DNA of 64,000 nt from Candidatus Omnitrophota bacterium (GTDB lineage: Bacteria; Omnitrophota; Gorgyraeia; Zapsychrales; Zapsychraceae): positions 5,458-69,457 of the forward strand of contig JAGQKV010000006.1 of assembly GCA_020429915.1 (NCBI GenBank), given 5' to 3'. Positions 29,394-47,902 of the stretch are shown in pieces (the first letter of the stretch is position 1; the number at the start of each line of letters is the position of its first letter). Made by a program: the position numbers and the translations under genes. The notes beneath the pieces were generated by a model. The model was not told the DNA's origin. It did no database searches and saw nothing but the letters and a program-made list of their open reading frames with translations.

Positions 29394-30692
29394 ATGAATA
29401 TACTGCTGATCAAACCGTACTGGCCTTATCCCTACGGCAAAGGGGAGCACACCTATAACCGTATATGGCCGCCGTTGTCGCTGGCGAATTGCGCTGCGAT
29501 TCTGGAACAGCGGGGGCATACGGTGGCCATCCTCGACGCGCACGCGCGGCGTATCCGCCCCCGATATATCGCGCGGCACATCGGCGGCTACGACAAGATA
29601 TTCCTGACATCATCTTCCTTGGACCGCTGGCAGTGTCCCAACGTCAATATGGTCCCCTTCTACGAAACCACCTCCGCGCTACGCGAGGCAGGCGCCGGGT
29701 TTTACGTGATGGGTTATCACGGGACTGTCGACGCGCAGAATGTCTTGGAACAGAGCGGGGCGCGCGCCGTCATCCGCGGCGGGCCCGAATTCATCGTAGC
29801 CGATATTTGCGCCGGCACCCCGCTGGCACAGATCAACGGCGTGAGCTATTTTGAAGGCGAAACCTTCCGCGCCAATCCCGATTACGGCAATTTCGAACTG
29901 ACCGAGCTGCCGGTACCGGCGTTTCATCTGCTCGATATCGACAAATATTTCTACGAGATTCTGGGCAAACGGTTCATGCTGTTCGAACTGGGCCGGGGCT
30001 GCAACTTCGGCTGCAAGTTTTGCAACCGCATCATGTACGCGCCCAAGCTGCGGGTGAAGACCAGCGAGCAGATGTGCGAAGAGGTGCGGACGGCCGTGGA
30101 GGAGCACGGCGTGAAGACGGCCTATTTCATGGACCTGGAATTTCTGCACTACAAAAATCATGTCAGCCGGCTGTGCGACTTCTTGATTGAAAAGAACTAT
30201 AACTTCAAATGGTGCTGCCAGACGCGGGCCGATTCGGTTGACCCGGACATTCTCGCGAAAATGAAGCAGGCCGGTTGTCAACTCATCCACGTCGGGGTGG
30301 AGAGCGGAACGAAAAAATACCTCGACCTCACCAACAAGTCCATTTCCCCTGAGCAGATTTTGGAGGGGGTCTCCATGTGTCGGGCCGCCGGGATCAAGAC
30401 GCTGGCCTTTTATATGTTCGGGTTAAAAGAGGAATCGGAAGACGACCGCCGGGAGACGTTTCGCTTTGCCAAAAAGCTGAACACCAACTTTGTCTCCTTC
30501 CACAAGGTCTATCCGTACCTGAAGAGCAATGTGTACATGCCGGATATCAATTTCAACAAATACATCGATAATTACATCCGCCGGGTGTATATCCAGTACT
30601 ACCTCCGTCCGGAATACATCTGGAGTTCGGATATGCTGACCCTGCTGCGCAGTTTCCGGGTGTTCATGGGGCGTTTACTGACTCTTATATGA
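29394..30692 (+). CDS. B12-binding-domain radical SAM enzyme
   Basis: 'GRGCNFGCKFC' CX3CX2C motif. N-terminal Rossmann-like domain ('ILLIKPYW..LSLANCAAILEQRGHTVAILD'). Confidence 0.7.
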   Translation: MNILLIKPYWPYPYGKGEHTYNRIWPPLSLANCAAILEQRGHTVAILDAHARRIRPRYIARHIGGYDKIFLTSSSLDRWQCPNVNMVPFYETTSALREAGAGFYVMGYHGTVDAQNVLEQSGARAVIRGGPEFIVADICAGTPLAQINGVSYFEGETFRANPDYGNFELTELPVPAFHLLDIDKYFYEILGKRFMLFELGRGCNFGCKFCNRIMYAPKLRVKTSEQMCEEVRTAVEEHGVKTAYFMDLEFLHYKNHVSRLCDFLIEKNYNFKWCCQTRADSVDPDILAKMKQAGCQLIHVGVESGTKKYLDLTNKSISPEQILEGVSMCRAAGIKTLAFYMFGLKEESEDDRRETFRFAKKLNTNFVSFHKVYPYLKSNVYMPDINFNKYIDNYIRRVYIQYYLRPEYIWSSDMLTLLRSFRVFMGRLLTLI

Positions 30693-32722
30693 TGAATCCC
30701 ATCCGTATATCCATCATCCTTCCCGTTTACAATGAAGAAGCGAATATTCAGCGCACTGTTGAAGAGGCGGCGCAGTGGTTGAAGCAGTGCGCCGGTATCT
30801 CCGCTTACGAAATCGTGGCGGTGAACGACGGCAGCCGCGACAACAGCGGTAAAATCCTGGAGCGTTTGAAAACCGAAGTCGAGAATCTCGTGGTGGTGGA
30901 CTATCCCGGGAACAAGGGATACGGAGGCGCGCTGGTGAGCGGGATTCGCGTGGCCCGTTACGACTGGATCCTGCTGATGGACTCCGACGGACAGTTCAAG
31001 ATGGACGCGCTGGCCGGTCTGCTCGAGTATACAGAGGAACACGACATCGTGGCCGGATACCGCCGGCAGCGGCAAGATAATTTCCTGCGCATCTGGCTCG
31101 GCGAGCTGTATACATTCCTGGCCGGCGCCTTCCTGAAGGTTCGGCTGCGCGACATCAACTGCGGATTCAAATTGTTCCGCAAATCTTTTCTGGATGTCGA
31201 CGGGATCAACACACATGCCGGCGCATTTTATACCCATGTCTTTATGAACGCGCACGCCAAGAACGCGCGGATCAAGGAAGTCCCGGTTGCGCATCACCCG
31301 CGCCCGGCCGGACGGTCGACAGGAGCCAGCCCCAAGGTGGTGATGATGGCCGTCAGTGATTTTTGGGACCTGCTGTTCGGTCGGGGACGGTCATCCGCCG
31401 CGCCGACACGCACGTCATGGGCCGGCAAAGCGGGCCTGCTGATCCTCGGTTGTTTTCTGACGCTGGTCGTGCTCGAGGTAGGCATGCGGACGTCCGGCGC
31501 CCTGATCACCACGGCGCAGTCTTTGCAGAACCGTTTGGCTGTCCGTGACGACAGCCGCTACCGCATTCTGTGCGTGGGGGAATCGACCACCTTCTTCGGG
31601 ACCTACAATTACGCGTATCCGCATATGCTCGAGGAGATCCTTAACCAGCACCCGGCCGGAAGCGAGTACCGGGTCTTTAATGAAGGACAGATCGGCACCG
31701 ATACGGATGAAATTCTCGAAGACCTGTCGGACCATCTGCGACGGTACCGACCGCACATGGTGATCGCGATGATGGGTGTCAACGACGCCTTCGGAGAGGA
31801 TTTGGGAACGGTGCCGGCGGGAGGGTTCTCGCATTTGCGTGTGGTCCGTTTGATGCAGCTCATTCGTCGTCACTGGCAGGAAAAGTTCGGGTCCTATCGC
31901 GGTGACCGCCATGTCGAACGGGGATACGAGTTTTTGAGTGACGGTGACATCGAGGAGGCGTGGGCGGAGGTGGAACGGGCCCGGCGGGCCGGTGCGCCGC
32001 CGGCGGAAATTGAAGCTCTGACCGGACATATCCATTGGCTGGCTGCCGGTGATTTCGACCGGTCGGCGGCGGCCTATGACAAGGCCCTCAGTCTGGACCC
32101 CGGCCGCGAGTGGCTTTATGAAGATTATTTTCAGGTCCTGTACTACGGCAATCGTTATGAAGAGGCTGCCGGTGTGATGCAACGGATGCTGGCCCGCTTT
32201 CCCAAATCAGAGGATGCCTACCGGAAGCTGGGGAAGGTGTATCTTCAACTGAAACAGTACGACAAACTCGAGGCCCTCCTGCAAAAGGCGGACGAGCAGG
32301 TTCCCGATGATCCGGGGATGATCAGGATCCGGGCGGCCTATCATCTGGCCAAGGGGGAAACCGACCGGGCCGAACGTCTTTTTGAACGCTATGCCGAGTA
32401 TGAACGTCAACACACCAATCCGCGGACGGCGGATAATTACCGTATCCTGCGGGATACGGTCCTGGCCTCGGGGGCTGAATTGGTAGCCGTACAGTATCCG
32501 TTGCGGGACGTGGATTCGCTCAAGGCCATGCTGAACAATGACCGGCGGGTCACTTTCGTCTCCAACGAGGATAATTTCAAGTCAGCGGTCCTGGAACACG
32601 GCTACGGCCAGCTCTTCACCGACCAATTTGCCGGCGACTTCGGTCATTTGAGCGACCGCGGGAACCGTCTGCTGGCCGGTGCGGTGGCCGAAGCGATTTT
32701 AGGGCATCTGCAAAGGCGGTAA
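30689..32722 (+). CDS. Fusion protein: GT2 (DPM1/GtrB-like polyprenyl-phosphate glycosyltransferase) plus SGNH hydrolase with TPR insertion
   Basis: N-terminal 'ISIILPVYNEE...VAVNDGSRDNS...LMDSDGQ' is a GT2 DxD-type domain. A TM helix follows, then 'RILCVGESTTFFG' (block I), 'VFNEGQIGTDTD' (block III), TPR repeats and 'FAGDFGHLSDRGNRL' (block V). Confidence 0.7.
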   Translation: MMNPIRISIILPVYNEEANIQRTVEEAAQWLKQCAGISAYEIVAVNDGSRDNSGKILERLKTEVENLVVVDYPGNKGYGGALVSGIRVARYDWILLMDSDGQFKMDALAGLLEYTEEHDIVAGYRRQRQDNFLRIWLGELYTFLAGAFLKVRLRDINCGFKLFRKSFLDVDGINTHAGAFYTHVFMNAHAKNARIKEVPVAHHPRPAGRSTGASPKVVMMAVSDFWDLLFGRGRSSAAPTRTSWAGKAGLLILGCFLTLVVLEVGMRTSGALITTAQSLQNRLAVRDDSRYRILCVGESTTFFGTYNYAYPHMLEEILNQHPAGSEYRVFNEGQIGTDTDEILEDLSDHLRRYRPHMVIAMMGVNDAFGEDLGTVPAGGFSHLRVVRLMQLIRRHWQEKFGSYRGDRHVERGYEFLSDGDIEEAWAEVERARRAGAPPAEIEALTGHIHWLAAGDFDRSAAAYDKALSLDPGREWLYEDYFQVLYYGNRYEEAAGVMQRMLARFPKSEDAYRKLGKVYLQLKQYDKLEALLQKADEQVPDDPGMIRIRAAYHLAKGETDRAERLFERYAEYERQHTNPRTADNYRILRDTVLASGAELVAVQYPLRDVDSLKAMLNNDRRVTFVSNEDNFKSAVLEHGYGQLFTDQFAGDFGHLSDRGNRLLAGAVAEAILGHLQRR

Positions 32723-35082: not shown

Positions 35083-37809
35083 ATGAGCCACCCTTTATAC
35101 ACATATCTTGATGACGCGATGACCTTCACATCGGCATCCGCGGCGCGCTGCCGTACACTTTACTTTCCATTATGCGGACCGACGGAGAATCAGCTCAAGT
35201 GCGCCGTCAGCCCGTACCTTGCCGGAGATATCAAACTCGACAAATCAGCTTATGTGACGCCGCCGGTGTCCCGGGAGGATCTGCGCCGTCCGCTGCGAAA
35301 TGTCTTTGTCTCCGTCGACGGGGCCGTATGCGCCCTGGCCGATCCCTACGGCGATGCCTCGTTGTTGACCGTGACCGCCGGACAGTTGTGGCATCAGGTC
35401 ACCCGGATTTTTCCCGAGGCCGGTATATCGGTCTCCGTGGTGAACTTTTGTCCCGCCGGCGACGACTGTGTCGAATTGATGCGGGTCAATGTGCGCAATG
35501 ACTCTGATACCGCCAAGACCGTCACTCCGACCGTCGCTGTGCCGTTGTTCGCCCGGGCTCTTGAGAACAAACACGATCACGAGCATGTGACCAGTTTGTT
35601 GAACCGGATCGAACAGGTCGCCGAAGGCGTGCTGGTGAATCCGACGATGAAGTTTGACGAAACCGGACACCTTCCCAATGAACGCGTCTATTTCGTATAC
35701 GGCGTGGACGGCAAGGGAGCCCCGGTGGACGGATCGTTTCCGACTATTTCAGCGTTCTGCGGTGAACAAGGTGATTTCCACCGGCCCGCCGCGATTTACG
35801 CAGCCCGTGAACCGGTCGCGTTGCCCGAGGGGGAGCGCCACGGTCAGGAGGCCGTCGGTGCCCTGCGGTTTGCGCGGATATCACTGCCGCCGGGACAAAC
35901 CGGATCCTATCTCGTGGCCGTGGGGATTGCCTCCGATTACGACAATTCTGTAGAGATATTCAACCGCTACAAAACCCCTCAGCTCATCGATCAGGCCCTG
36001 GCCGACAACAAGACTTATTGGGCCGCCAAGACGGCTTCGATCACCGTCCACAGCGGCGATGCCGATTACGACGCGTGGATGCGCTGGGTTGTTCTGCAAC
36101 CGGTGCTGCGGCGGATCTTCGGCTGCTCATTTTTGCCGGACCATGATTACGGCAAGGGCGGCAAGGGCTGGCGCGATATCTGGCAGGACCTGTTGTCCCT
36201 GATTCTCATTGAGCCGGAACAAGTGCGTGACAACCTGATCAATAATTTCGGCGGAGTGCGCATTGACGGATCAAACGCCACGATTATCGGCGCCCGTCCC
36301 GGTGAATTTATCGCCGACCGTAACAAAATTTCGCGGGTATGGATGGACCACGGCGTGTGGCCGTTGCTGACGCTTTCTCTTTATATAGACCAGACCGGCG
36401 ACTATGATATTTTGCTCGAACAGCAACCCTACTTCCGTGATCATCAGCGGGCCCGGAACATGCGTCGTGACGGCGCGGATTATTCCGGAAGCGGGGAAGA
36501 GGCCGCATTCGAAGGTAACCGGCTGCGTGACCACGAAGGGACCGAATACCGGGGCACGCTCATCGAACACCTCCTGGTCCAGGCGCTGGTGCAATTCTAT
36601 AATGTCGGCGAACACAACATCATCCGTTTGGAGAACGCCGACTGGAACGACGGGCTGGATATGGCCTTTGAACGCGGTGAAAGTGTCGCGTTTGCCAGCC
36701 AGTATGGCGGTAATCTGCTGCGTCTGGCCACCCTTTTGGATGAACTTGCCGAGCGTAAGGGCCTGGAAGATATTTCCGTAGCCAGGGAACTGTTGCTGCT
36801 GCTGGACAATGTCAGCGATCCGGTCGACTATGACGACATCGAGGCCAAACAGGCGGTCCTGTTGAAGCACTATTTTCCCGCGGTGGAACCCTGCGTGTCG
36901 GGAAAAAAGGAAAATGTGACGGTGAAGGATGTCGTGAAAAATCTGCGGCACAAAGGGCAGTGGATATTCGATCACATCCGCCAGCAGGAAAAAATCTCCG
37001 TTGACGGCCATACCTGGTTTAACGGCTATTATGATAATCAGGGACAGCGGGTGGAAGGGAAGGTCGGCGGCGTGACCCGCATGACATTGACCGGTCAGGT
37101 CTTTCCGGTCATGAGCGGATTGGCTAAGGAGAATGACATAGTAAAGATCATCGCGGCCGTGGACAAGCATCTGCGTGATACCGCATTGGGAGGTTACCGG
37201 TTAAATACAGATTTTCAGCGGCCGCATTATCTCGACCTCGGCCGAGCCTTCGGTTTTGCTTACGGCACCAAGGAAAACGGGGCGTTCTTCAGTCATATGA
37301 TCGTAATGTACGCTTACGCGCTGTACCGGCAGGGCTTCGCGCGGGCGGGACACGCGGTGCTCGACTCGATTTTCCGGATGTGCCAGGATACCGATAAAAG
37401 TCTGATCTATCCCGGGGTTCCCGAGTATCTTGATTCCCTGGGAAGAGGTATGTACCATTACCTGACCGGATCGGCCAGCTGGCTGGTCCTGACTGTGTTG
37501 ACACAGGTCTACGGCGTCGCCGGAGAAGGCGGACGGCTGCGGTTGCGTCCGCAGCTGGTGAAGGCGCAGTTCGACGGTGACGGTTGCGCGATTGTGCGCT
37601 GTATGTTTGCCGGTAAAAGGATCTGTGTGACATATTCCAACCCGCAACATCTGGAATTCGGGGACTACCAGGTGACCGGGGCGGCGGTAAACGGAACGAA
37701 AGTGGCAGGTGCCGGGTTGCCCGCGCCTGCCGTGTGCATTGAACGGTCGGTTATCGCCAAGGCCGTGGCCGACGTACAGATCAACGTGTCCCTGGGGCCG
37801 CGGGGTTGA
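35083..37809 (+). CDS. Large (alpha/alpha)6-type glycoside phosphorylase/hydrolase, GH94-like (cellobiose/beta-glucan phosphorylase family)
   Basis: 908 aa. 'GWRDIWQDLL' and 'ENADWNDGLDM' resemble conserved GH94 active-site segments. No signal peptide. The family call is tentative. Confidence 0.5.
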   Translation: MSHPLYTYLDDAMTFTSASAARCRTLYFPLCGPTENQLKCAVSPYLAGDIKLDKSAYVTPPVSREDLRRPLRNVFVSVDGAVCALADPYGDASLLTVTAGQLWHQVTRIFPEAGISVSVVNFCPAGDDCVELMRVNVRNDSDTAKTVTPTVAVPLFARALENKHDHEHVTSLLNRIEQVAEGVLVNPTMKFDETGHLPNERVYFVYGVDGKGAPVDGSFPTISAFCGEQGDFHRPAAIYAAREPVALPEGERHGQEAVGALRFARISLPPGQTGSYLVAVGIASDYDNSVEIFNRYKTPQLIDQALADNKTYWAAKTASITVHSGDADYDAWMRWVVLQPVLRRIFGCSFLPDHDYGKGGKGWRDIWQDLLSLILIEPEQVRDNLINNFGGVRIDGSNATIIGARPGEFIADRNKISRVWMDHGVWPLLTLSLYIDQTGDYDILLEQQPYFRDHQRARNMRRDGADYSGSGEEAAFEGNRLRDHEGTEYRGTLIEHLLVQALVQFYNVGEHNIIRLENADWNDGLDMAFERGESVAFASQYGGNLLRLATLLDELAERKGLEDISVARELLLLLDNVSDPVDYDDIEAKQAVLLKHYFPAVEPCVSGKKENVTVKDVVKNLRHKGQWIFDHIRQQEKISVDGHTWFNGYYDNQGQRVEGKVGGVTRMTLTGQVFPVMSGLAKENDIVKIIAAVDKHLRDTALGGYRLNTDFQRPHYLDLGRAFGFAYGTKENGAFFSHMIVMYAYALYRQGFARAGHAVLDSIFRMCQDTDKSLIYPGVPEYLDSLGRGMYHYLTGSASWLVLTVLTQVYGVAGEGGRLRLRPQLVKAQFDGDGCAIVRCMFAGKRICVTYSNPQHLEFGDYQVTGAAVNGTKVAGAGLPAPAVCIERSVIAKAVADVQINVSLGPRG

Positions 37810-37885
37810 AAGGAAAGGTTTTGATTTTTTTCAGGCCCCGTGTTATACTCCTAACTTCATAAATTTCAATACCATTGGAGTCACT

Positions 37886-39190
37886 ATGAAAAAGATCATA
37901 GCGTTAGTTTTGCTCGTCGTGATGGCCGTGGTCGGATGCTTTTTTTGGGGCTGCGGAAAGAAACCGGTCAACACCAACGAGATCCTCATCTGGCACTGGA
38001 TGACCGACCGCCACCAAGCCTTCGAAACACTCGCCCAGCAATATTCAGAACAAACCGGCGTCGCCATCAAAATCCAGCTTTTCGCTCCTCCCGATACCTA
38101 CAGTCAACGCATCACCGCCTCCGCTCAAGCCAACACACTTCCCGACATCTTCGGTATTCTCGACAAGAAGGAAATTTTTGCCGACTTTATCAAGTACGGA
38201 CTGGTTGCCGATTTGACGGACGAGTACAAGAAGGATGACGGGGCGTGGGAACAGGCCATGTTTCCCAAGGCGCTGGAAGTCAACCGTTTTACCGCGGACA
38301 ATATCTACGATGTAAAGCCCGGAATTTACGGAGTGCCGATCGACGTTACCAACATTCAAATGCTCTACAACAAGGATTTATTGGAGAAGGCCGGGGTGAA
38401 GGAAGTGCCGCGGACTTTCGATCAATTTCTGGCGGCGGTCAAAAAGCTCAATAGCGTCGGTATATCCGGCCTGGTCTCCGGATGGGGCGAAATTTGGCTG
38501 GCCGACGCCTTCGCGTCCAATTACGCCTTTAACATCATGGGCGAACAGAAGATCATGGACACTTATCAAGGGAAGGTGCCCTACACCGATCCGGATTGGC
38601 TGAAAGTCTTCCGGGTCTTCAAAACTTTGAGCGAGGCGGGCGCCTTTGCCGAGGGGGTCGTGACCAAGCCCAACAAGGAAGCCGAACAGGACTTCGCGCT
38701 GGGCCGGGCGGCATTCGCTTATAACGGTTCATGGTGCGTTAACGTTTATCACGATATGAACCCGGATTTGAATTACAGCGCGATGCTGCCGCCGAAGATG
38801 AATCCGGATCGTCCGATGAAAATTTGGGGCGGGGCCGGGTCGTCGTTTGTGGTGAATGAGCAGTCTGCGAAGAAGGAACAGGCGATTGCCTTTTTGAAAT
38901 GGTTGTCCGCTGAAAAACAGCAGGCTTATCTCGCCAGGGAAACACGCAACCTGCCGGCGAACCGCAAGGCCCTTGCTGCGATTCCCGAGGTCCTGTCCGA
39001 TTTTGCCAAGGTCATGGACAACACCACCCACCCCACGATCTGGAAGTACAATGAACTTCCCAAGGTGACGGAGGCCTTCGACAAAGGTCTGCAGTCCATC
39101 GTCATCGGTGAGAAAACGCCGAAACAGGTGGCGGAAGAAGTGCAAAAGGTCAAGGAACGCGAAATGGAAAAACAACGCAACCGGCAGTAG
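37886..39190 (+). CDS. ABC transporter extracellular solute-binding lipoprotein (CUT1 sugar family)
   Basis: Start at the ATG at 37886 (MKKIIALVLLVVMAVVGC..). Lipobox signal. SBP family 1-like sequence ('ILIWHWMTDRHQAFETLAQQYSEQTGV'). Confidence 0.8.
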   Translation: MKKIIALVLLVVMAVVGCFFWGCGKKPVNTNEILIWHWMTDRHQAFETLAQQYSEQTGVAIKIQLFAPPDTYSQRITASAQANTLPDIFGILDKKEIFADFIKYGLVADLTDEYKKDDGAWEQAMFPKALEVNRFTADNIYDVKPGIYGVPIDVTNIQMLYNKDLLEKAGVKEVPRTFDQFLAAVKKLNSVGISGLVSGWGEIWLADAFASNYAFNIMGEQKIMDTYQGKVPYTDPDWLKVFRVFKTLSEAGAFAEGVVTKPNKEAEQDFALGRAAFAYNGSWCVNVYHDMNPDLNYSAMLPPKMNPDRPMKIWGGAGSSFVVNEQSAKKEQAIAFLKWLSAEKQQAYLARETRNLPANRKALAAIPEVLSDFAKVMDNTTHPTIWKYNELPKVTEAFDKGLQSIVIGEKTPKQVAEEVQKVKEREMEKQRNRQ

Positions 39191-39193
39191 ACT

Positions 39194-40111
39194 ATGGCTA
39201 AACGTCAAAAAATGAGTTCCATCAAACTCGCCGACATTTCGGAGAACTACCTGTTCATCCTGCCCGCCGTCATCATTTTCGCCATCTTTTACATCTATCC
39301 TTTTATCGATATCATCAATTTGTCCCTTCATGAATGGAAGGGGATCGGTCCGAAGGTGTTTGTCGGATTGCGCAATTTCAAGGAATTGATGTCCGACAAG
39401 ATTTGGTGGAAGTCGATCTGGAACGCGACCTACATCACCCTGTGGGCGCTGACCTTCCAAAACGTGCTGGCATTCATGCTCGCGTTGGCCTGCGACCGCG
39501 AAATCCGCTTCAAGAAGTTTTACCGGGTGGTGTTTTTTATCCCGCCGGTACTTTCGCAGGTGGTGGTCGGTTTGATCTGGCGGTGGATTCTCAACGCGGG
39601 CAAGCAGGACGGCCAGTACATCGGACTGCTGAATCATCTGCTCGACAGCATCGGGTTGCATCATCTGACCAATGATTGGTTGTCGGATCCGGCAACGGCG
39701 CTGACTTGTATCGCCATTGTGCATTGCTGGATGGGGTTCGGCTGGGGCTTCATCATGTTGCTGGCCGGTCTGCAGACCATCGACAAGCAGTTATACGAAG
39801 CGGCCAAAGTCGACGGTGCCAGCAGCTGGTCCACGTTCTGGAATGTGACCATTCCGATGATGGTACCCGTCATCCTGGTGGTTGTGATCCTGACCGTACT
39901 CGGATCGATGCAGGCCTTCATCCTTGTGCTGTCGATGGTCGGCCAGGGACTGGTGCATCACACCGATGTCCCCGTCACCCGGATATTGGGCGCGATGCAG
40001 GGGACCAAGGAGTTCGGCTACGCCTGCGCCATGGGTGTGAACTTCGCCATCATCCTGATCGCGGTCTCGGCCCTGATGAAGATGGGCTCGAATAAACTCA
40101 AACAAGCCTAG
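39194..40111 (+). CDS. ABC sugar transporter permease (MalF/UgpA-like)
   Basis: Six TM helices and an EAA-type loop 'YEAAKVDGASSWSTFWNVTIPM'. Confidence 0.85.
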   Translation: MAKRQKMSSIKLADISENYLFILPAVIIFAIFYIYPFIDIINLSLHEWKGIGPKVFVGLRNFKELMSDKIWWKSIWNATYITLWALTFQNVLAFMLALACDREIRFKKFYRVVFFIPPVLSQVVVGLIWRWILNAGKQDGQYIGLLNHLLDSIGLHHLTNDWLSDPATALTCIAIVHCWMGFGWGFIMLLAGLQTIDKQLYEAAKVDGASSWSTFWNVTIPMMVPVILVVVILTVLGSMQAFILVLSMVGQGLVHHTDVPVTRILGAMQGTKEFGYACAMGVNFAIILIAVSALMKMGSNKLKQA

Positions 40112-40140
40112 CGTTAAACGGATACAGGAGAAGCCCGGGA

Positions 40141-40980
40141 ATGAACGGATATATCATACGGCGAAACATGCGGTATTTCGTGTTACACCTTTTTCTTATG
40201 TCGGTGGCCGTCACCTGCCTGTTTCCCCTCTTTTACATGATCCGTTGTTCGGTCATGGACAATCAGACCATTTTTACCGACAAAGGTATTCTGCCCAGCG
40301 TGGTGAATTTCGGTAATTATGCCACGGCCTGGGTTGACGGAAATTTCGGGACGTTTTTCTTTAACAGTATGCTGTACACCACCAGCGTGGTGATCGGGAT
40401 CGTCGTGATTTCTTCCATGGCGGCTTATGCCTTCTCCCGGCTGAGCTTTCCCGGGCGTGACTGGTTTTACTACATGTTCGTGATCGCGATGATGATCCCG
40501 TTACCCGGGTCTTTCGTGCCGCTGTTCGTTTTGATGAACAAGCTGCATCTTACGAATACCAAGATCGGTTATATCCTGTGTATGATCAACGTGGGGCTGT
40601 CGTTGAGTGTCATCCTGCTCAAGACGTTCTTCGACAAAATGCCGTCGGACCTGGAAGATGCGGCACGCATCGACGGCTGCACCAAGTGGCAAATCTGGTG
40701 GAACGTCGCCCTGCCGTTGGCCCGTCCCGCGGTGGCCGTTATTGTCATCTTCAATGCCTTGAACGTCTGGAATGAGTTTATCCTGGCGCAATTACTATTA
40801 AGTGAAGAGGTCCATATGCCGTTGCAGGTGGGGCTCATGAAGTTCATCAACGTACATACCGTCAATTACCCCATCATGATGGCCGGACTGACCATCGCCG
40901 CTGTTCCGATCATCCTGTTGTACTTAGCCATGCAAAAACACATCATTAAGGGACTTTCATCAGGAGCTGTTGTAGGATGA
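40141..40980 (+). CDS. ABC sugar transporter permease (MalG/UgpE-like)
   Basis: 'EDAARIDGCTKWQIWWNVALPLARPAV' EAA motif and six TM helices. Confidence 0.85.
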   Translation: MNGYIIRRNMRYFVLHLFLMSVAVTCLFPLFYMIRCSVMDNQTIFTDKGILPSVVNFGNYATAWVDGNFGTFFFNSMLYTTSVVIGIVVISSMAAYAFSRLSFPGRDWFYYMFVIAMMIPLPGSFVPLFVLMNKLHLTNTKIGYILCMINVGLSLSVILLKTFFDKMPSDLEDAARIDGCTKWQIWWNVALPLARPAVAVIVIFNALNVWNEFILAQLLLSEEVHMPLQVGLMKFINVHTVNYPIMMAGLTIAAVPIILLYLAMQKHIIKGLSSGAVVG

Positions 40981-43310
40981 TTTCAAACGTATCTTTTCGT
41001 ACCTGGGCGCTCGCCGCGGCGGGCGTTGTATTCCTTTCTCTGTCAACCGCCATGCCGGCTGCAGCCGACGATTATGACACTGCCAAGGTTAAAGATCCGG
41101 TCGTCGACGAGGCTTGGGCCGCTTCCGCGCAACGGCAAAAGGAGAAACTCGACGAGTTGGTCTCCACCTGCCGAGAGAAGTTCGAGAAGAAGGCCGAGAA
41201 ACTGCAGGCCGGGCTCACCGAATTTCCCAAAGTTTCGGAACGGATCAAATACCAGCCACTGAACGATCTGGCTACCTGTCTCTTTATTGAAGCCGAATAC
41301 ACCATGAACTCCGGTAAGAAAGACGAGGCCATCGAGAAATTTGAGTTTATTCTGGATAACTTCAGCTGGGGCCAGGCGTGGGACGCGCGCACCGGGGCGT
41401 TTTGGTCTATTGCCGAAAAGAGCCAGGCTTCGATCGATGTGATGAAGGGGATCGAGCGCAAGGAGGAAACCGTAGATTTGGAAAATCTCCTGCGGACAGT
41501 CCCCAAAATGCACACACCGGGAACCGAGAAGATCGTGGACTACAAGAAATACGGCGAATTTCTTAACGTCGGCAAAGAAAACTATCACTACAGGATTAAG
41601 GACATCGATGGACTCAAGGCCGCCGTCGGCGAGGGAATATATCCCAATATCGGAGCGATCTATCAGAATCCCGGCTACAAGAAGGCCAAGAAAGAGGGCC
41701 GGCTCGAAGGAAGCCACTGGCCCTTCGTGAATTCGACCGACCTGGAGGCCGCGTACTTCAAGTGGTTTACCGCCCCGGAACCGTGGGGCGTGCGCATGTA
41801 TTACATCGGATTGATCTTCGAGAGGGCCGGCCTGTACTATGAGGCGCTACGGGCGTATCATTCGTTGCTCGTCCATTATCCCAAGACTATCGGTTACACC
41901 TACTGGGACACTCCCTGGTATCCGGCCCAGGCGGCCATTGCCAAGATCCGGCATATCCTGCGCACGCATCCGGAACTGAATCTCGAGGCGAAGTATATGA
42001 AGGTGGAGGTCCTCAAAGGATTCGACAACAATCCCAAGAATGACAAGATCCTCACCTGGCCCGGCAAGATCGTCAAGCGCGGGCTGGTCGAAAAGGTCGA
42101 CGAGCTGTTCCCGTGGAGCGAAAAGAAGGTCGAGCTTGATACCGTGGTGGAACGTAAAGGGGAAGGCAAGGTGCAAGTCGTTAAATACGACAACGGCCAT
42201 TGGCAGTTGATCGTGGAAGGCAAACCCTTCCTGATCAAGGGGATGACCTACGATCCGACCAAGGTCGGTCAGTCGCCCAACAAAGGCACGCTCGAAAACT
42301 GGATGGAAGAAGACACCAACGGCAACGGACTGGCCGACGGGCCTTTCGACTCATGGATCGACGTTAATCTCAACAATAAGCAGGACGAAGACGAGCCGGT
42401 TGTGGGTGACTTTCAGCTGATGAAGGAAATGGGGGTCAACGCCATCCGTTTCTATCATGTGCCCACCACACCGCACAAGGAAGTCCTGCGCAGACTGTAT
42501 GAAGAGTACGGGATCCGGGTCATCCTGGGCGACTTCCTCGGCAAGTACGCGGTCGGCTCCGGTGCCACCTGGCTGGAAGGGACCGATTACGAAAACGAGG
42601 AACATAAGGCCAAGATGATGGAGAACGTCAAGAAAATGGTCATGGAGCACAAGGATGAGCCGTATATCCTGATGTGGCTGCTGGGGAACGAAAACAACTA
42701 CGGCGTTGCCTGCAACGCCGATAAAAAGCCCGCGGCGTTCTTTAAGTTCGCCGACGAGGCTGCGCAATGGATCAAATCGGTCGACAAGGACCACCCGGTG
42801 GCGATCGCCAGCGGGGACACGCTTTATCTCGACATCTTTGCCGAGAATGCGCCCAACATCGACATATATGCCGCCAATGTGTACCGCGGTGACTACGGGT
42901 TCGGGTCATACTGGGAGCAGGTATACGACGCGACGAAAAACAGCAAACCGGCGTTCATTACGGAGTACGGAGCGCCGGCTTATGCCGGAAACATGACACT
43001 GGAGGAAGCGGAACAGGCCCAGGCCGATTATCATCGCGGGAACTGGTTGGATATCTACGATAACTCCGCCGGTCAACCCAACGGAGTCGGTAATGCGCTC
43101 GGTGGCGTTGCCTTTGAATTTCTGGACGAGTGGTGGAAGAACTACGAGCCCTTCCGTCACGACCGCAAGTCGGACACCGTCGGTCCGTTCCCCGGGGGGT
43201 ACTATTACGAGGAATGGTTCGGCCTCGTCGGACAGGGCAACGGCCAGCACAGTCCCTTCCTGCGTCAGCCGCGCAAGGCATACTATCAATACAAGGAATT
43301 ATGGAACTAA
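40977..43310 (+). CDS. Secreted GH2-like (TIM-barrel beta-glycosidase) protein with a novel N-terminal module
   Basis: Signal peptide. 'MWLLGNENNYG' (acid/base region, WxxGNE) and 'AFITEYGAPAYAG' (nucleophile ITEYG) are typical of GH2 beta-glucuronidase/mannosidase-type TIM barrels. The N-terminal ~150 aa are homologous to repeats in 43561-44415. Confidence 0.55.
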   Translation: MISNVSFRTWALAAAGVVFLSLSTAMPAAADDYDTAKVKDPVVDEAWAASAQRQKEKLDELVSTCREKFEKKAEKLQAGLTEFPKVSERIKYQPLNDLATCLFIEAEYTMNSGKKDEAIEKFEFILDNFSWGQAWDARTGAFWSIAEKSQASIDVMKGIERKEETVDLENLLRTVPKMHTPGTEKIVDYKKYGEFLNVGKENYHYRIKDIDGLKAAVGEGIYPNIGAIYQNPGYKKAKKEGRLEGSHWPFVNSTDLEAAYFKWFTAPEPWGVRMYYIGLIFERAGLYYEALRAYHSLLVHYPKTIGYTYWDTPWYPAQAAIAKIRHILRTHPELNLEAKYMKVEVLKGFDNNPKNDKILTWPGKIVKRGLVEKVDELFPWSEKKVELDTVVERKGEGKVQVVKYDNGHWQLIVEGKPFLIKGMTYDPTKVGQSPNKGTLENWMEEDTNGNGLADGPFDSWIDVNLNNKQDEDEPVVGDFQLMKEMGVNAIRFYHVPTTPHKEVLRRLYEEYGIRVILGDFLGKYAVGSGATWLEGTDYENEEHKAKMMENVKKMVMEHKDEPYILMWLLGNENNYGVACNADKKPAAFFKFADEAAQWIKSVDKDHPVAIASGDTLYLDIFAENAPNIDIYAANVYRGDYGFGSYWEQVYDATKNSKPAFITEYGAPAYAGNMTLEEAEQAQADYHRGNWLDIYDNSAGQPNGVGNALGGVAFEFLDEWWKNYEPFRHDRKSDTVGPFPGGYYYEEWFGLVGQGNGQHSPFLRQPRKAYYQYKELWN

Positions 43311-43384
43311 GCCCGGGATTTTTTGGGCCGGTCTTAAGTTCATAATATACAATATTTTACGATTTTTTGTCGACGACCGATTCG

Positions 43385-43413
43385 TTGGCAAAAAAAGGGA
43401 AATATTGTATACT
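43385..43413 (+). promoter_or_regulatory. Candidate sigma70 promoter for the repeat-protein gene
   Basis: TTGGCA(43385-43390)-N17-TATACT(43408-43413). A strong RBS AAGGAGG lies 8 nt before the ATG at 43561. Confidence 0.4.
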
Positions 43414-43560
43414 TATGTAACTTATTCACACGGTTCCACTTTCCCCAGCGCCGGACCGGTTCTGTTCCAGCCAAGTACGGTCACGGAATTTCATATTTGC
43501 CTGACATTACATAGAGCAGGACGGAGTTTAATTAGCATTATTTTTAAGGAGGAGAAGGTA

Positions 43561-44415
43561 ATGAAAAAGATGGTACTCGCACTCACGATTTTAACAGCGT
43601 CCCTGGGAATGATCCATCCCCCGCAGGCCATGGCCTACAATTTTGGTGATTTCCGTTCAGAGACCTTGACGACAAAGGCCTGGATGGCGCTGAAGGAAGG
43701 TGATATCGAAGCCGTACTCGCTTACACCAACAAATGTCTCGAGCTTTACGCCGAGCAGGCACAAAAGATGCAAGCCAGTCTCGAAGACTATCCGCAAGGC
43801 AGCAACGACGATATTTTTTCTTACTGGGCATTGAACGACATCTCGACATCGTTGTTTATCCAGGGAGAGGCCTACCGTCAAGCCGGGATGGAAGATGAAG
43901 CCAAGGAAGCCTTCATGAAGGTCGTCAACGACTACACGTACGGACAGGCGTGGGACCCGAAAGGATGGTTTTGGAAGCCGGCCGAGGCCTCCAAGGAAAA
44001 GTTGCTGATGATCGAAACGGGTTCCGATATCGACTTCGGCGACTATACCTCATCGTTTATGACAACGCAGGCATGGAAGGCCCTGAAGGACAACGACCTC
44101 GAATCTGTTTTGATCTACACCGACAAGGTGATCGCGCTGTACGGCGACAAGGCCGTGGAAATGCAAAACTCCCTGACGGAATACGCTTGGGAATCCAAAG
44201 ACAAGATCTTCAGCTACTGGGCCCTCAATGACGTAGGAACTTCGCTGTTCATCCGCGGGGAAGCTTACAAGAAGGCCGGCGAAACGGACAAGGCCCGTGA
44301 AGCCTACAAGTCCCTGGTCGATGACTTCTATTACTCACAATGCTGGGACCCGAACGGCTGGTTCTGGAAGCCGGCCGAAGCCGCTCAGCAAGCCCTTGAA
44401 GAATTAGAAGCGTAA
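43561..44415 (+). CDS. Secreted protein made of two tandem ~125-aa repeats of an undescribed module
   Basis: Start at 43561 (MKKMVLALTILTASLG signal peptide). The two repeats share 'F(S)YWALND..TSLFI.GEAY..AG..D.A.EA...V(V)D...Y.Q.WDP.GWFWKPAEA'. Confidence 0.6.
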   Translation: MKKMVLALTILTASLGMIHPPQAMAYNFGDFRSETLTTKAWMALKEGDIEAVLAYTNKCLELYAEQAQKMQASLEDYPQGSNDDIFSYWALNDISTSLFIQGEAYRQAGMEDEAKEAFMKVVNDYTYGQAWDPKGWFWKPAEASKEKLLMIETGSDIDFGDYTSSFMTTQAWKALKDNDLESVLIYTDKVIALYGDKAVEMQNSLTEYAWESKDKIFSYWALNDVGTSLFIRGEAYKKAGETDKAREAYKSLVDDFYYSQCWDPNGWFWKPAEAAQQALEELEA

Positions 44416-44563
44416 AACGCCCGTTTTTTCGCAATTATCTCAAAATTCTTCTTCCAATTTTTCTCCATCCCGATACAATAAAGTTCTGTATCGGGATGGA
44501 GAATCCCGAGTTTCTAATCGATCCCAACCGCAATCAATCCAATGTCAGGAAGGCAATGACACC

Positions 44564-45253
44564 ATGATGATCCGAGTTCTCATCCTGCTTCTGGCGGTCA
44601 GTCTGGCTGCCTGTGATTCCGCCCAAAGCCCGAAAATGCCCACTGTCGTCTCAAATAAGGCGCAGGCCGAGACGCCGCCGCAACCGGCCCAGCCGGCCAA
44701 ACCGGTGGTGGAGGAGGAGTCCCAAGAGTCCGATTTCAGACGGTTTTATGTTTATTCCGACAAGGGAGCCCGGGACAATCATTATGTTCCTTCAGGATTT
44801 ATGCCGGACGGCAAGTGCATTTCCTTCAATGACCGTTGGCAGGAAGAATGTCAGAACGGCAAGACCTGCATCAAGATCGTTTACGACATCGAGTGCTCCA
44901 AGGAGCATCAGGAATGGGCCGGCATCTATTGGTTGAATCCGGCCAACAACTGGGGCCGCCGCAAGGGCGGTTACAACCTGACCGGCGCCACTAAGCTGAC
45001 GTTTTGGGCCAAGGGAGAGATCGGCGGGGAACAGATCCAGGAATTCACCATCGGCGGCGTCGAAGGCGATTATCCCGATTCCGACAAAATCGTCATCGGT
45101 CCGGTCATCCTTTCCGACGAGTGGAAGCAATATTCGGTGGATCTGCAGGGTAAAGACCTGTCCTATATCAGCGGCGGATTTGCCTGGTCGACCGAGGTCG
45201 CAGTCAATCCCGAGTCGTGCGTGTTTTATCTCGACGAAATCAAATTTCAGTAA
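44564..45253 (+). CDS. Lipoprotein with a beta-sandwich (CBM/galactose-binding-like) C-terminal domain
   Basis: Lipobox 'LAAC', a Pro/Gln-rich linker, then ~150 aa with 'WAKGEIGG...FYLDEIKF' reminiscent of carbohydrate-binding modules. Confidence 0.5.
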   Translation: MMIRVLILLLAVSLAACDSAQSPKMPTVVSNKAQAETPPQPAQPAKPVVEEESQESDFRRFYVYSDKGARDNHYVPSGFMPDGKCISFNDRWQEECQNGKTCIKIVYDIECSKEHQEWAGIYWLNPANNWGRRKGGYNLTGATKLTFWAKGEIGGEQIQEFTIGGVEGDYPDSDKIVIGPVILSDEWKQYSVDLQGKDLSYISGGFAWSTEVAVNPESCVFYLDEIKFQ

Positions 45254-45294
45254 TCCGTTTGTGCGAACCGCGTCTGAACGCGGTTCCGCGCCGA

Positions 45295-45325
45295 AGACAG
45301 GCCGTTTCCGGCCTGTCTTTTTTTG
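45295..45325 (+). terminator. Rho-independent terminator
   Basis: AGACAGGCCG-tttc-CGGCCTGTCT followed by TTTTTTT. It is preceded by a second hairpin GAACCGCG-tctgaa-CGCGGTTC at 45265-45286. Confidence 0.7.
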
Positions 45326-45458
45326 TCCTGCCCGGTAAAAATCCTTCTGAGATAACCATTTAGAAAAAAATACCCGTCAAAAAAAAGGGGATTATTCTTG
45401 TTAATATATTAATACTTTGATATATTCAGTATTAAATTGTGTTAACAATAGAGGGGTT

Positions 45459-46817
45459 ATGTCCAGATCTATCAAAGTCGGATATGTGATTCTGATCGTT
45501 ATGATTCTGGGGGTGCTCGGATTTCTGGGGTACACCCTCATGGAGATGCAAAAGCTCACCGACACCAAGGCTGTGGTCGAGGAAGAGCTTGAATTAGCCG
45601 ACGCCCGCACCAACGAAAAGATCAAAGAAAACAAGAAATTGACCGAACAGGTCGAGACCCTCACGACGGAAAAGGAAGCGCTGGAGAAACAGCTCAGCGA
45701 AACCACCGCCAAGTCCATCGAACTCGAGCAGCAATTGCTCGGGATGACCGCCGAACGCGACAAGTGGAAGACGGACTTCGACACCATCACCAAGACCCGC
45801 ATCGATCTCGAAAATCAAGTCAAGACGCTGACCAAGCAAATCGACGACACCAAGAATCAACTGGACGAACAGAAACAACTCGCCCGCCAATTGAACGAGT
45901 CCGCGATCGGTTTCGGGACCAGTGGCGACAAAAACGGCGGCGGTCCTGTGGCCTACACCGTCGAAAAATCCAAATCGCAAGTCATCGAGATCCCCAAAGA
46001 TATTCCCCCGGCTTCGGATGAATCGTATTGGGCCAATCTGCTCCGGGACAAGGCCGAACTTGAGGTTAAGCTCCAGGGTATGGAAGACAACCTTGCCCAG
46101 AGTTCGATTCAAATTGTCGAACTGCGTCAGCAAAATGAAGATCTGCAGTTGGAACTCGACACGTTGCAGGCGCAAAGTGACGACCTCGCGCAGGAAATCA
46201 AATATAAAAGCAACATGATCAACAATCTTTCGCTGGAGTTGGCCCGCACCAAGAACGACAAGAAATTTATCTCCGACCGGCTGACTCGTATCCAACAGGA
46301 GAACGGCGGATTGCGTGAGGAGTTGCGCCAGCTCGTCGAGGCCAAGAGCTCCCTGCAGAAATCCATAGTGCGGCTGACCCAGGACAAGAACAAGGTCGAA
46401 CGCGAACTCGGCAGCGCCGAGAATTTGATTCAAAGCAAGATCGACGAGATTTGGGAAATCAAGGAGAGCCTCGACCGGACGTTTAAAGAATCCACCCAAA
46501 AGTTTCAGTCGCCGGGCACTGTTGAACTCCCCCCGATCATGGTGAGCTCCGGAGGCAACGCTCCGGCTATCAAATTCGACTCGGGCGCCACCGAACCGGG
46601 ATTCAACGGTCGCATCGTCAGCGTCAATGAAGAGAACAATTTTGTCATCGTGGACGTCGGGGAAGAGGCCGGCGTGGGGCTGGGAGACGCGCTTAGCGTC
46701 TACCGGGATTCCAAATACGTGGCCCAGTTGGAAGTGATTCAGGTCCGCAAGGATATTGCCGCCGCCGACATCAAGAACCAGTGGACGCAGGTTCAGGTGG
46801 GCGATACGATCCGCTAG
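45459..46817 (+). CDS. Membrane-anchored coiled-coil protein with a C-terminal beta domain
   Basis: Start at the ATG at 45459. N-terminal TM helix, then ~300 aa of heptad-rich low-complexity sequence (E/L/K/Q-rich). C-terminal 'GRIVSVNEENNFVIVDVGEEAGVGLGDAL'. The 429-aa antisense ORF is rejected. Confidence 0.5.
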   Translation: MSRSIKVGYVILIVMILGVLGFLGYTLMEMQKLTDTKAVVEEELELADARTNEKIKENKKLTEQVETLTTEKEALEKQLSETTAKSIELEQQLLGMTAERDKWKTDFDTITKTRIDLENQVKTLTKQIDDTKNQLDEQKQLARQLNESAIGFGTSGDKNGGGPVAYTVEKSKSQVIEIPKDIPPASDESYWANLLRDKAELEVKLQGMEDNLAQSSIQIVELRQQNEDLQLELDTLQAQSDDLAQEIKYKSNMINNLSLELARTKNDKKFISDRLTRIQQENGGLREELRQLVEAKSSLQKSIVRLTQDKNKVERELGSAENLIQSKIDEIWEIKESLDRTFKESTQKFQSPGTVELPPIMVSSGGNAPAIKFDSGATEPGFNGRIVSVNEENNFVIVDVGEEAGVGLGDALSVYRDSKYVAQLEVIQVRKDIAAADIKNQWTQVQVGDTIR

Positions 46818-46897: not shown

Positions 46898-47902
46898 ATG
46901 CCCAAGAAAAAAATCAGCATCGAGGACGTCGCCCAGCGGGCCAAGGTCTCCATCACCACCGTCTCACGAGTAATCAATAACGTTCCCACCGTATCCGACA
47001 AGAACAGAGCCAAAGTCGAAGAGGCCATCGCGGCCCTTAAATTCAAACCCAATGTCAGCGCCCAGCGTCTGGCCCGCGGTGTCAACAACGCCATCGGCTT
47101 GGTGATGCCCGGGTATCCCGGGATCTTCCATTCGTATTATGCGATCGAACTGATCCGCGGGGTGGGGCATGCCTGCGAAACACACCGCATGGACATGGTG
47201 TTCCATATCACCGACGGGAACAATCCCATCAACTCGAATAATGTCGACGGGATCATCTTTGCGGATATTATCGAAAACCGTAAGCAGGTCGACGCGGCCA
47301 TGGCCGGCGGGACCCCGGTGCTGATCATCAACAACCGGGTCGACGATATGGAAATCAATTACGTGGCGATCGACAATTTCGAAGGCGGCCGCATCGTGGC
47401 TGAATATCTCACCGGGTTCGGTCATGAACGCATCGCCACGATCACCGGCAAGCTTACCACGCAAAGCGGTCATCACCGCTTCGAAGGTTTCAAGCAGTAT
47501 TTGGAATCGCATAACGGCGGCATTCCGCCGCAATATGTCATCGAGGGTGATTACTCCCGGCGCAGCGCGCGTTTGGCCGCCGAAGATTTTCTCAAACTGG
47601 ACGAGCGGCCCACGGCTATCTTTGCGGCCAGTGACGACATGGCGTTGGAGGCTATTGCCGTCCTGTTGGAGAAGGGCCTGCGGGTCCCGGAAGATATCTC
47701 GGTGATCGGGTTTGATGATAATCCTGCCTGTCTGTTTGGACCGGTCGCGTTAACGACCGTTCGCCAGCCGCTGTTCCAAATGGCGGAACAGGCCGTCAAG
47801 GTCCTGGTTGACGCCATTAACAAGAAGAACGAGGGCCACGTTCAGCAGGTGCTCACGCCGGAGATCGTAGTCCGGGAGACCTGCTGCCCCCCCCAAAAGT
47901 AA
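46898..47902 (+). CDS. LacI-family transcriptional regulator
   Basis: N-terminal HTH 'ISIEDVAQRAKVSITTVSRVINN' and a periplasmic-binding-protein-like sugar-binding domain. Confidence 0.85.
   Translation: MPKKKISIEDVAQRAKVSITTVSRVINNVPTVSDKNRAKVEEAIAALKFKPNVSAQRLARGVNNAIGLVMPGYPGIFHSYYAIELIRGVGHACETHRMDMVFHITDGNNPINSNNVDGIIFADIIENRKQVDAAMAGGTPVLIINNRVDDMEINYVAIDNFEGGRIVAEYLTGFGHERIATITGKLTTQSGHHRFEGFKQYLESHNGGIPPQYVIEGDYSRRSARLAAEDFLKLDERPTAIFAASDDMALEAIAVLLEKGLRVPEDISVIGFDDNPACLFGPVALTTVRQPLFQMAEQAVKVLVDAINKKNEGHVQQVLTPEIVVRETCCPPQK

Follow-up and report, generated by a model that had tools for sequence, protein, structure and literature searches.

A TPR-derived, exported and tandemly repeated module of Omnitrophota that is most likely part of a β-1,3-glucan machinery

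We analysed a 64,000-nucleotide stretch of the genome of a Candidatus Omnitrophota bacterium (GenBank assembly GCA_020429915.1, contig JAGQKV010000006.1, positions 5,458 to 69,457; hereafter the window, in whose numbering all coordinates are given). In it, a unit of about 126 residues occurs twice in an exported 284-residue protein, which we call ProtB, and once in the N-terminal part of an exported enzyme encoded upstream, which we call ProtA. We found that this ~126-residue repeated unit is real, and that it is a lineage-specific, exported and tandemly amplifiable module derived from the tetratricopeptide repeat (TPR). The most likely function of the operon in which it lies is to import β-1,3-glucan and break it down, and the module is most likely a non-catalytic, extracytoplasmic binding or scaffold element of this β-1,3-glucan machinery. 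The papers that we found on Omnitrophota and on GH158 contain no description of the module or of the β-glucan operon. The two proteins and their parts are as follows.

43561..44415, + strand: ProtB, an exported protein of 284 aa in which two modules follow a signal peptide (43561-43635) (open reading frame call).
43636..44019, + strand: module 1 of ProtB, residues 26-153 (single-module hidden Markov model (HMM), E 9e-68).
44029..44412, + strand: module 2 of ProtB, residues 157-284 (HMM E 3e-67; 56% identical to module 1).
40977..43310, + strand: ProtA, a 777-aa exported enzyme; its signal peptide is followed by a single module, then a degenerate half-module, a β-sandwich and finally a TIM barrel of clan GH-A (open reading frame call, Pfam, PDB and AlphaFold2).
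41097..41447, + strand: the module copy in ProtA, residues ~41-157, with four helices, a β-hairpin (AWDARTGAFWS) and a capping helix (BLAST E 4e-18; HMM E 8.8e-21).
41784..41966, + strand: the degenerate half-module in ProtA, residues ~270-330, with one TPR pair, a hairpin (YWDTPWYPAQAA) and a helix (BLAST, HMM and AlphaFold2).
41982-42248, + strand: the β-sandwich of ProtA, which precedes the barrel (AlphaFold2).
42408..43304, + strand: the catalytic (β/α)8 barrel of ProtA, residues ~478-776 (Pfam, PDB search and AlphaFold2).

The two halves of ProtB, of about 128 residues each, aligned without gaps and were identical at 70 of 126 positions (56%, E 7e-54), which bears out the internal tandem duplication proposed in an initial annotation of this DNA. 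As DNA, the halves are 58.7% identical and codon position 3 holds most of the differences, and we therefore conclude that the duplication is old and has been preserved at the protein level. The same annotation had the module opening ProtA as well, and this also proved correct: BLAST aligned ProtB with the N-terminus of ProtA at 31% identity over 143 residues (E 4e-18), and the second ProtB module by itself at 35% over 89 residues (E 1e-11). When a single-module HMM, made from 80 module copies, was run on the six-frame translation of the whole window, it found exactly three significant copies, two in ProtB and one at residues ~42-157 of ProtA (E 9e-21). E-values of 7e-54, 4e-18 and 9e-68 exclude chance or low-complexity similarity as the source of the repeat. 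The shared motifs that had been noticed at the outset hold up across 40 orthologues, in which ALND and QxWDPxGWFWKPAEA are invariant. Secretion of both proteins had likewise been proposed, and inspection of the sequences places a Sec-type signal peptide at the N-terminus of each, with the junctions ...PPQAMA|YNFGD in ProtB and ...MPAAA|DDYD in ProtA.

Four Pfam TPR models pass their cut-offs on ProtB (TPR_6, 38.8 bits against 26.3; TPR_2, 35.4 against 27; TPR_1, 34.7 against 27.8; TPR_8, 32.2 against 25.7). The matches are confined to residues 97-122 and 228-256, about 26-30 of the 126 residues of each module, and the N-terminal module of ProtA, which has no Pfam TPR match of its own, is linked to TPRs only through its homology to ProtB. 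An AlphaFold2 model of ProtB, computed with 40 orthologues (predicted local distance difference test 89.5; predicted template-modelling score (pTM) 0.77), gives each module the same layout: a TPR-like helix pair with a long second member comes first, then a short helix and another helix pair, after which two strands form a hairpin and a last helix caps the module. In module 1 the helices span residues 33-45, 49-72, 82-86, 89-107, 111-124 and 140-153, with the hairpin at 130-138; in module 2 they span 164-176, 180-203, 213-217, 220-238, 242-255 and 271-283, with the hairpin at 261-269. The first helix pair follows the W4/L7 pattern of TPR, the second, which begins with the invariant ALND, is a canonical TPR pair, and the Trp-rich β-hairpin of the modelled module is the QxWDxxGWFWKP segment. 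A conserved DFGD..S linker joins the two units of ProtB head-to-tail. Searched against PDB with Foldseek, the ProtB model matched TPR proteins and nothing else, YfgM, BamD and NlpI among them, and all matches were weak (E >= 2e-3; template-modelling (TM) scores of 0.17-0.33). Public databases already label the ProtB family 'tetratricopeptide repeat protein'.

Together, the Pfam matches, the purely TPR list from Foldseek and the existing label mean that the module is not an unplaceable fold, as the initial annotation had suggested. That annotation had itself named a confident match to a TPR family as a result that would speak against it, and the four Pfam models provide such a match for part of the unit. 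What stands of its claim concerns the unit as a whole: neither Pfam nor NCBIfam holds a dedicated family for the complete 126 residues, and a profile search of PDB sequences for a relative of the module returned at best a designed CTPR at E 0.2. The fold class thus appears to be a known one, whereas the 126-aa super-repeat with its hairpin is without a family of its own or a solved relative. NCBIfam gave TPR-type matches on ProtB only below threshold, with the equivalogs tol_pal_ybgF at 17.9 bits against a cut-off of 90.1 and OM_YfiO (BamD) at 15 against 81.4, and no Sel1 family appeared among the Pfam matches of ProtB at E <= 1.

Compared with canonical TPRs such as the designed CTPR, BamD, NlpI and YfgM, the likeness lies in the second helix pair, which passes Pfam, and in the fold matches, all of which are TPR. 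The 34-residue periodicity of TPRs is not kept, however: the repeating unit of the module is 126-132 residues long and contains the non-TPR insertions of a short helix and a β-hairpin. The module adds to the canonical repeat an elongated B helix, the extra short helix and the invariant ALND cap, and has its Trp-rich β-hairpin between helix B2 and the following helix. Solved TPRs superpose poorly on it overall, at the TM scores and E-values given above, and there was no PDB profile match.

We found 1871 homologues of ProtB, those with a name being 'tetratricopeptide repeat protein' of Candidatus Omnitrophota. A profile built from the 40 orthologues and compared with 1.84 billion representatives matched 1189 clusters at E <= 1e-3 and 694 at E <= 1e-10. 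All named members of the module family, in the homologue searches and in a genome scan that was limited by pattern, belong to Omnitrophota; records titled 'Planctomycetales' or 'Lysobacterales' were taken as mislabelled because they carry the same syntenic Omnitrophota cassette. Copy number was scanned with the single-module HMM in 154 proteins (150 listed representatives and 4 cluster members). Near-full-length copies numbered one in 85 of these, two in 43, three in 10, four in 4 and five in 3, with none in nine, and one protein (P0244) has six module matches in its domain table. The tandem spacing throughout was 126-132 residues, and units follow one another in rigid arrays, from 1 copy up to 6 or more. 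The family signature, taken over 225 module copies, reads S..L...AW / A...Q..L / (YW)ALNDVgT..fI / aQcWDp.GwfWkpa.aa.

Several partners of the module in these proteins are glycan-active. Two modules accompany a GH128-type 'Glyco_hydro_cc' core (1e-44) in P0287, four are joined to a chitobiase C-terminal domain in P0257, and in P0297 the module occurs with a GH72-like region, He_PIG and DUF4082. P0311, a 1202-aa protein from an ENA metagenome contig, combines a GH-A barrel of the ProtA type (31% identical to the barrel of ProtA, E 2e-28) with two modules, transmembrane segments and a processive-type, cellulose-synthase-like GT2. In P0372 a Ser/Thr kinase is followed by a transmembrane segment and two external modules, the layout of a putative ligand sensor. 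The module is also found with RHS repeats (P0330) and in giant proteins of 2,000-6,000 aa. Wherever the topology of a protein could be read, its modules are extracytoplasmic. The independent fusions to several glycan-active domains make the binding or targeting role proposed in the initial annotation plausible. The proposed tie to a carbohydrate locus is upheld in that the module belongs to such an operon and is fused to glycan enzymes, but not as an exclusive one, since the paralogue P0288 lies in a phosphate-transport neighbourhood.

In ProtA, AlphaFold2 places the helices of the module at residues 41-51, 55-78, 93-111, 115-128 and 145-157 and its strands at 133-136 and 141-144. The half-copy that follows scored E 1e-3 with BLAST, a domain E of 0.56 with the HMM (residues 272-327) and 21.2 bits with Pfam TPR_6, which is under the cut-off. 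Its modelled elements are helices at 270-283, 287-300 and 316-330 and strands at 306-314, and W310, P313, W314, Y315 and P316 are invariant in the orthologue alignment.

The catalytic part of ProtA had been called GH2-like, which is imprecise: its match is to the clan GH-A TIM barrel, and its nearest solved relative is a GH158 endo-laminarinase. Pfam Glyco_hydro_2_C covers residues 473-698 at 64 bits, Pfam gave no match to Glyco_hydro_2_N or Glyco_hydro_2, and the NCBIfam models for β-galactosidase and β-glucuronidase reached 26-34 bits against cut-offs of 544-2000. Compared with PDB by sequence, ProtA was closest to 6pal (E 1.6e-10), with GH158(Pro) next (2.4e-09); by fold, the top match was again 6pal, the BuGH158 endo-laminarinase (E 2.5e-11), and GH72 β-1,3-glucanosyltransferases and GH2 glucuronidases came later. 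The catalytic Glu motifs GNE(572) and TE(663)YG are invariant in 38 orthologues and align with the GNE and TE-x-G motifs of the GH158 endo-β-1,3-glucanases (BuGH158, 6pal; GH158(Pro), 9oro), whereas the ~470 N-terminal residues of ProtA, which hold the module, the half-module and the β-sandwich, have no counterpart in BuGH158. The start codon of ProtA overlaps the stop codon of the second permease gene as ATGA at 40977-40980, an overlap from which we expect translation of the exported enzyme to be coupled to that of the importer genes. That importer and the other genes of the cassette are listed here.

35083..37809, + strand: GH94 laminaribiose phosphorylase, with which the pathway would end in the cytoplasm (PDB 6ggy, E 1.5e-258, residues 25-897 of 908; Pfam GH94).
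37883..40980, + strand: CUT1 ATP-binding cassette (ABC) importer, with a solute-binding lipoprotein at 37883-39190 and permeases at 39194-40111 and 40141-40980 (Pfam).
45417..46817, + strand: membrane-anchored coiled-coil protein, kept in the cassette (Pfam/NCBIfam and synteny).
46898..47902, + strand: LacI-family regulator, kept in the cassette (family annotation and synteny).

The likely substrate is β-1,3-glucan, because the GH94 protein matches laminaribiose phosphorylase, ProtA is nearest to BuGH158 and then to GH72, and its catalytic Glu residues are invariant. The gene for the phosphorylase lies directly upstream of the transporter genes in the window and was seen upstream in 22 of 80 related loci, the 8-kb flank often being too short where it was not detected. 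Comparisons of the solute-binding protein gave generic CUT1 oligosaccharide-binder matches, which are uninformative on specificity. Of the 466 residues of the coiled-coil protein, about 350 form coiled coil; a transmembrane segment lies at the N-terminus, and at the C-terminus is a small domain rich in β-structure, with weak FlgT_C and KOW-like matches. The protein is only 35-40% identical between genomes, and no relative of it was found in PDB.

Across 80 Omnitrophota species loci, the genes are colinear in nearly all cases, in the order solute-binding protein, permease, permease, ProtA, ProtB, lipoprotein, coiled-coil protein, LacI and mnmG. ProtB was present in 80 of these loci, the lipoprotein in 76, ProtA in 65 and the coiled-coil protein in 63, with contig ends accounting for most gaps. 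The most persistent element of the cassette is the pair formed by ProtB and the lipoprotein (76/80). In a few species the junction between ProtA and ProtB is broken by large RHS/YD-repeat or AAA-DUF4143 genes (L016, 2417-6277; L086, 608-4531; L056, 2744-3916), which indicates that the junction tolerates insertion and that ProtB retains expression signals of its own. The pair survives these insertions, as it does the displacement or absence of ProtA, and in the rearranged cassette of L086 ProtB is still near a GH116 gene. We rejected the idea that ProtB is unusually conserved: its inter-genome identity of 59-67% is the same as that of the permeases, LacI and MnmG, and as the cassette genes in general are ~60-68% identical between genomes, like mnmG, ProtB is under no exceptional constraint. 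The signals around ProtB and its partner are these.

43385..43413, + strand: promoter-like site, TTGGCA-17-TATACT, in the 250-nt gap ahead of ProtB (consensus match only).
44564..45253, + strand: lipoprotein with lipobox LAAC and a ~175-aa Cys/Trp-rich C-terminal domain (adjoins ProtB in 76/80 species loci).
45293..45320, + strand: strong terminator-like hairpin, with a 12-bp stem and a T run, 3' of the lipoprotein gene (sequence scan).

A strong Shine-Dalgarno sequence (AAGGAGGAG) stands immediately 5' of the ProtB ATG, and the terminator-like hairpin would end a transcription unit made up of ProtB and the lipoprotein. Between the two genes lies a perfect 17-nt inverted repeat (44461-44503; TTCTCCATCCCGATACA / TGTATCGGGATGGAGAA, with a 9-nt loop) with no T run after it, which may stabilise the RNA, terminate transcription in part or serve as an operator. 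In the alignment of the lipoprotein domain, C31, C42, C48 and C57 are invariant, as are many Trp and Gly residues. The domain has no NCBIfam match, its best PDB match is at E 2.1, and Pfam gave nothing usable at E <= 5 (CX9C matched in 2 of 15 members at E 0.02, which we judged to be chance). Its 2062 homologues are all labelled 'hypothetical' and almost all come from Omnitrophota; many are of ~383 aa, a length that together with the score suggests two domain copies. Arguably, this domain is more novel than the TPR module.

How the parts would work together can be sketched as follows. In the exported ProtA, one copy of the module precedes what is probably a GH158-like retaining glucanase or transglycosylase, and ProtB, with two copies, would be co-produced with the lipoprotein, which would anchor the complex, and would stay with the enzyme. 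Laminari-oligosaccharides released by ProtA would enter through the CUT1 ABC importer and be split by the laminaribiose phosphorylase, with LacI controlling the system. Glucan would be bound by the Trp-rich hairpins together with conserved polar residues (Q, N, D and S), spaced regularly along the predicted solenoid, so that the module would play the role that carbohydrate-binding modules (CBMs) or surface glycan-binding proteins have in other systems. We favour binding of a glycan chain, tentatively and at somewhat less than even likelihood, for two reasons: glycan enzymes of four kinds and a sensor kinase carry the module where a CBM would typically be, and aromatic and polar residues abound in its conserved motif.

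Several observations weigh against this reading. Glycan binding by the module is a prediction from its sequence and placement that no known CBM family supports: at E <= 1, neither a CBM nor a SusD/RagB model was among the Pfam and NCBIfam matches. The usual ligands of TPRs are peptides or proteins, and many of the invariant residues of the module occupy canonical TPR packing positions. The exposure of the hairpin aromatics at the surface is presumed, and the Trp-rich form of the hairpin is degenerate in several fused copies (P0311, 'AQAQDWKGNYFKLKEG'; the copies of P0257). The single-module paralogue P0288 is found amid phosphate-transport and two-component genes. ProtA is only ~19% identical to the GH158 structures, so that we infer its substrate. 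Finally, conservation of gene order reaches well past the operon, with mnmG always next, and the cassette genes, mnmG included, all share the ~60-68% identity noted above, which makes synteny alone weak evidence for a shared function.

Instead of glycan, the modules might bind protein. It is a real possibility, if a rather doubtful one, that they form a pure protein-protein scaffold, in which ProtB bridges the lipoprotein anchor to the module of ProtA and the enzyme is kept near the ABC importer; contacts between ProtB and ProtA would be homotypic or heterotypic, and glycan would be recognised elsewhere, for example by the lipoprotein domain or the β-sandwich of ProtA. Such a scaffold would suit both the TPR identity of the module, by Pfam and Foldseek, and the fact that one module type is common to ProtA and ProtB. 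ProtB has no anchor of its own, the lipoprotein gene is next to it in 76 of 80 loci, and the pair outlasts the displacement or absence of ProtA, while a unit of just these two genes is suggested by the promoter-like site 5' of ProtB and the strong terminator 3' of the lipoprotein gene. With its conserved rigid linker and a pTM of 0.77, ProtB looks like a solenoid and not like beads on a string, and a scaffold is also in keeping with the finding of the module in giant proteins of many domains and near genes unrelated to carbohydrate. However, this explanation leaves unaccounted for why the module recurs in CBM-like positions, next to glycan-active domains of four types and on the outer side of a sensor kinase. 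The glycan-binding and protein-scaffold readings are compatible with each other.

We consider it improbable that ProtB is a general periplasmic TPR housekeeping protein, acting in chaperoning or envelope assembly in the manner of CpoB/YbgF, BamD or YfgM, whose position in the operon merely follows a phylum-wide gene order. TPR_6 is indeed the best Pfam model, NCBIfam gives weak YbgF (17.9 bits) and BamD (15 bits) matches, the Foldseek list includes YfgM, BamD and NlpI, synteny runs on to mnmG at a level of conservation equal to that of the genome backbone, and there is a paralogue at an unrelated locus. The NCBIfam scores are nevertheless far under their cut-offs (90 and 81 bits), the module is part of the same polypeptide as the operon's own glycan enzyme and is fused to further glycan enzymes as well, and ProtB remains near glycan genes even in the rearranged cassette with GH116 (L086). 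More improbable still is that ProtB regulates ProtA, be it by inhibiting it, activating it or serving as its processivity clamp, or that ProtB chaperones a periplasmic β-glucan which the cell makes itself. P0311, in which a ProtA-type barrel, two modules and a GT2 are united, hints at glucan synthesis or remodelling over foraging, and GH72 transglycosylases are among the closest folds of ProtA. NdvB-type cyclic β-1,3-glucan synthases consist of GH17 and GT2, and P0311, with a layout that resembles theirs, raises the possibility that in some contexts the ProtA barrel works as a transglycosylase. Yet the design of the operon is catabolic, with an importer, a phosphorylase and a LacI repressor, and this cassette contains no GT2.

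Returning to the β-1,3-glucan machinery, the closest functional analogue of the Omnitrophota operon is the Bacteroides β(1,3)-glucan locus, in which GH158 is paired with two non-catalytic surface glycan-binding proteins, SGBP-A (SusD-like) and SGBP-B (PMC7157763). Both loci place a gene for a GH158-type endo-glucanase beside two exported non-catalytic proteins and appear dedicated to β-1,3-glucan. SusD proteins also have TPR-like helices as a scaffold, but Bacteroides SusD has no sequence or Pfam relationship to the module, and the Bacteroides locus, in another phylum, relies on SusC/TonB uptake and GH3 where the Omnitrophota operon has a CUT1 ABC importer and GH94 phosphorolysis. CBM4 and CBM6 are appended to β-1,3-glucanases, and a further example of such an arrangement is CBM56 on GH81 (PMC9609564). 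The module resembles these CBMs in that non-catalytic copies are fused to glucanase domains, vary in number by tandem duplication and carry an aromatic-rich motif; it differs in that the known β-1,3-glucan CBMs are β-sandwiches, whereas the module is α-helical with one hairpin and its glycan binding is predicted. A further resemblance may exist to the periplasmic TPR domains of exopolysaccharide machines (PelB, AlgK, BcsC and PgaA), extracytoplasmic arrays whose partners are polysaccharide and glycoside hydrolases or deacetylases. They are, however, parts of outer-membrane export porins in biosynthetic operons and lack the hairpin and the 126-aa periodicity.

A bolder form of the glycan-binding reading, which we hold to be unlikely, is that the 126-aa unit represents a previously unrecognised class of CBM, α-helical in fold, in which a TPR scaffold holds out Trp hairpins at a fixed pitch to grip β-1,3-glucan chains, and that ProtB and the lipoprotein are a glycan-capture complex, the Omnitrophota counterpart of the Bacteroides surface glycan-binding proteins. 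If so, foraging on or remodelling of β-1,3-glucan would be a core, phylum-wide trait of Omnitrophota, which are at present discussed mainly as ultra-small predators or parasites. More generally, if the module binds glycan, a helical scaffold would join β-glucan-binding modules that are otherwise all β-sandwiches; if it binds protein, it would define an envelope assembly of an enzyme, a soluble adaptor and a lipoprotein. In either case, the operon marked by the module is among the most widely conserved sugar operons in these Omnitrophota genomes, and its GH158-like enzyme, ABC importer and laminaribiose phosphorylase point to the use of a laminarin-like β-1,3-glucan in an uncultured phylum. Defining the unit as 126 residues also yields a usable profile and signature for a family of ~1,200 clusters that is now labelled merely 'tetratricopeptide repeat protein' or 'hypothetical'.

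The window also holds a separate envelope-glycan cluster, in which a 677-aa protein (30689-32722, + strand) fuses a GT2 to a GDSL-like lipase/acylhydrolase region and ordinary TPRs (TPR_19/14/16). This fusion is unrelated to the module described here, and a GT9 heptosyltransferase-like gene follows it.

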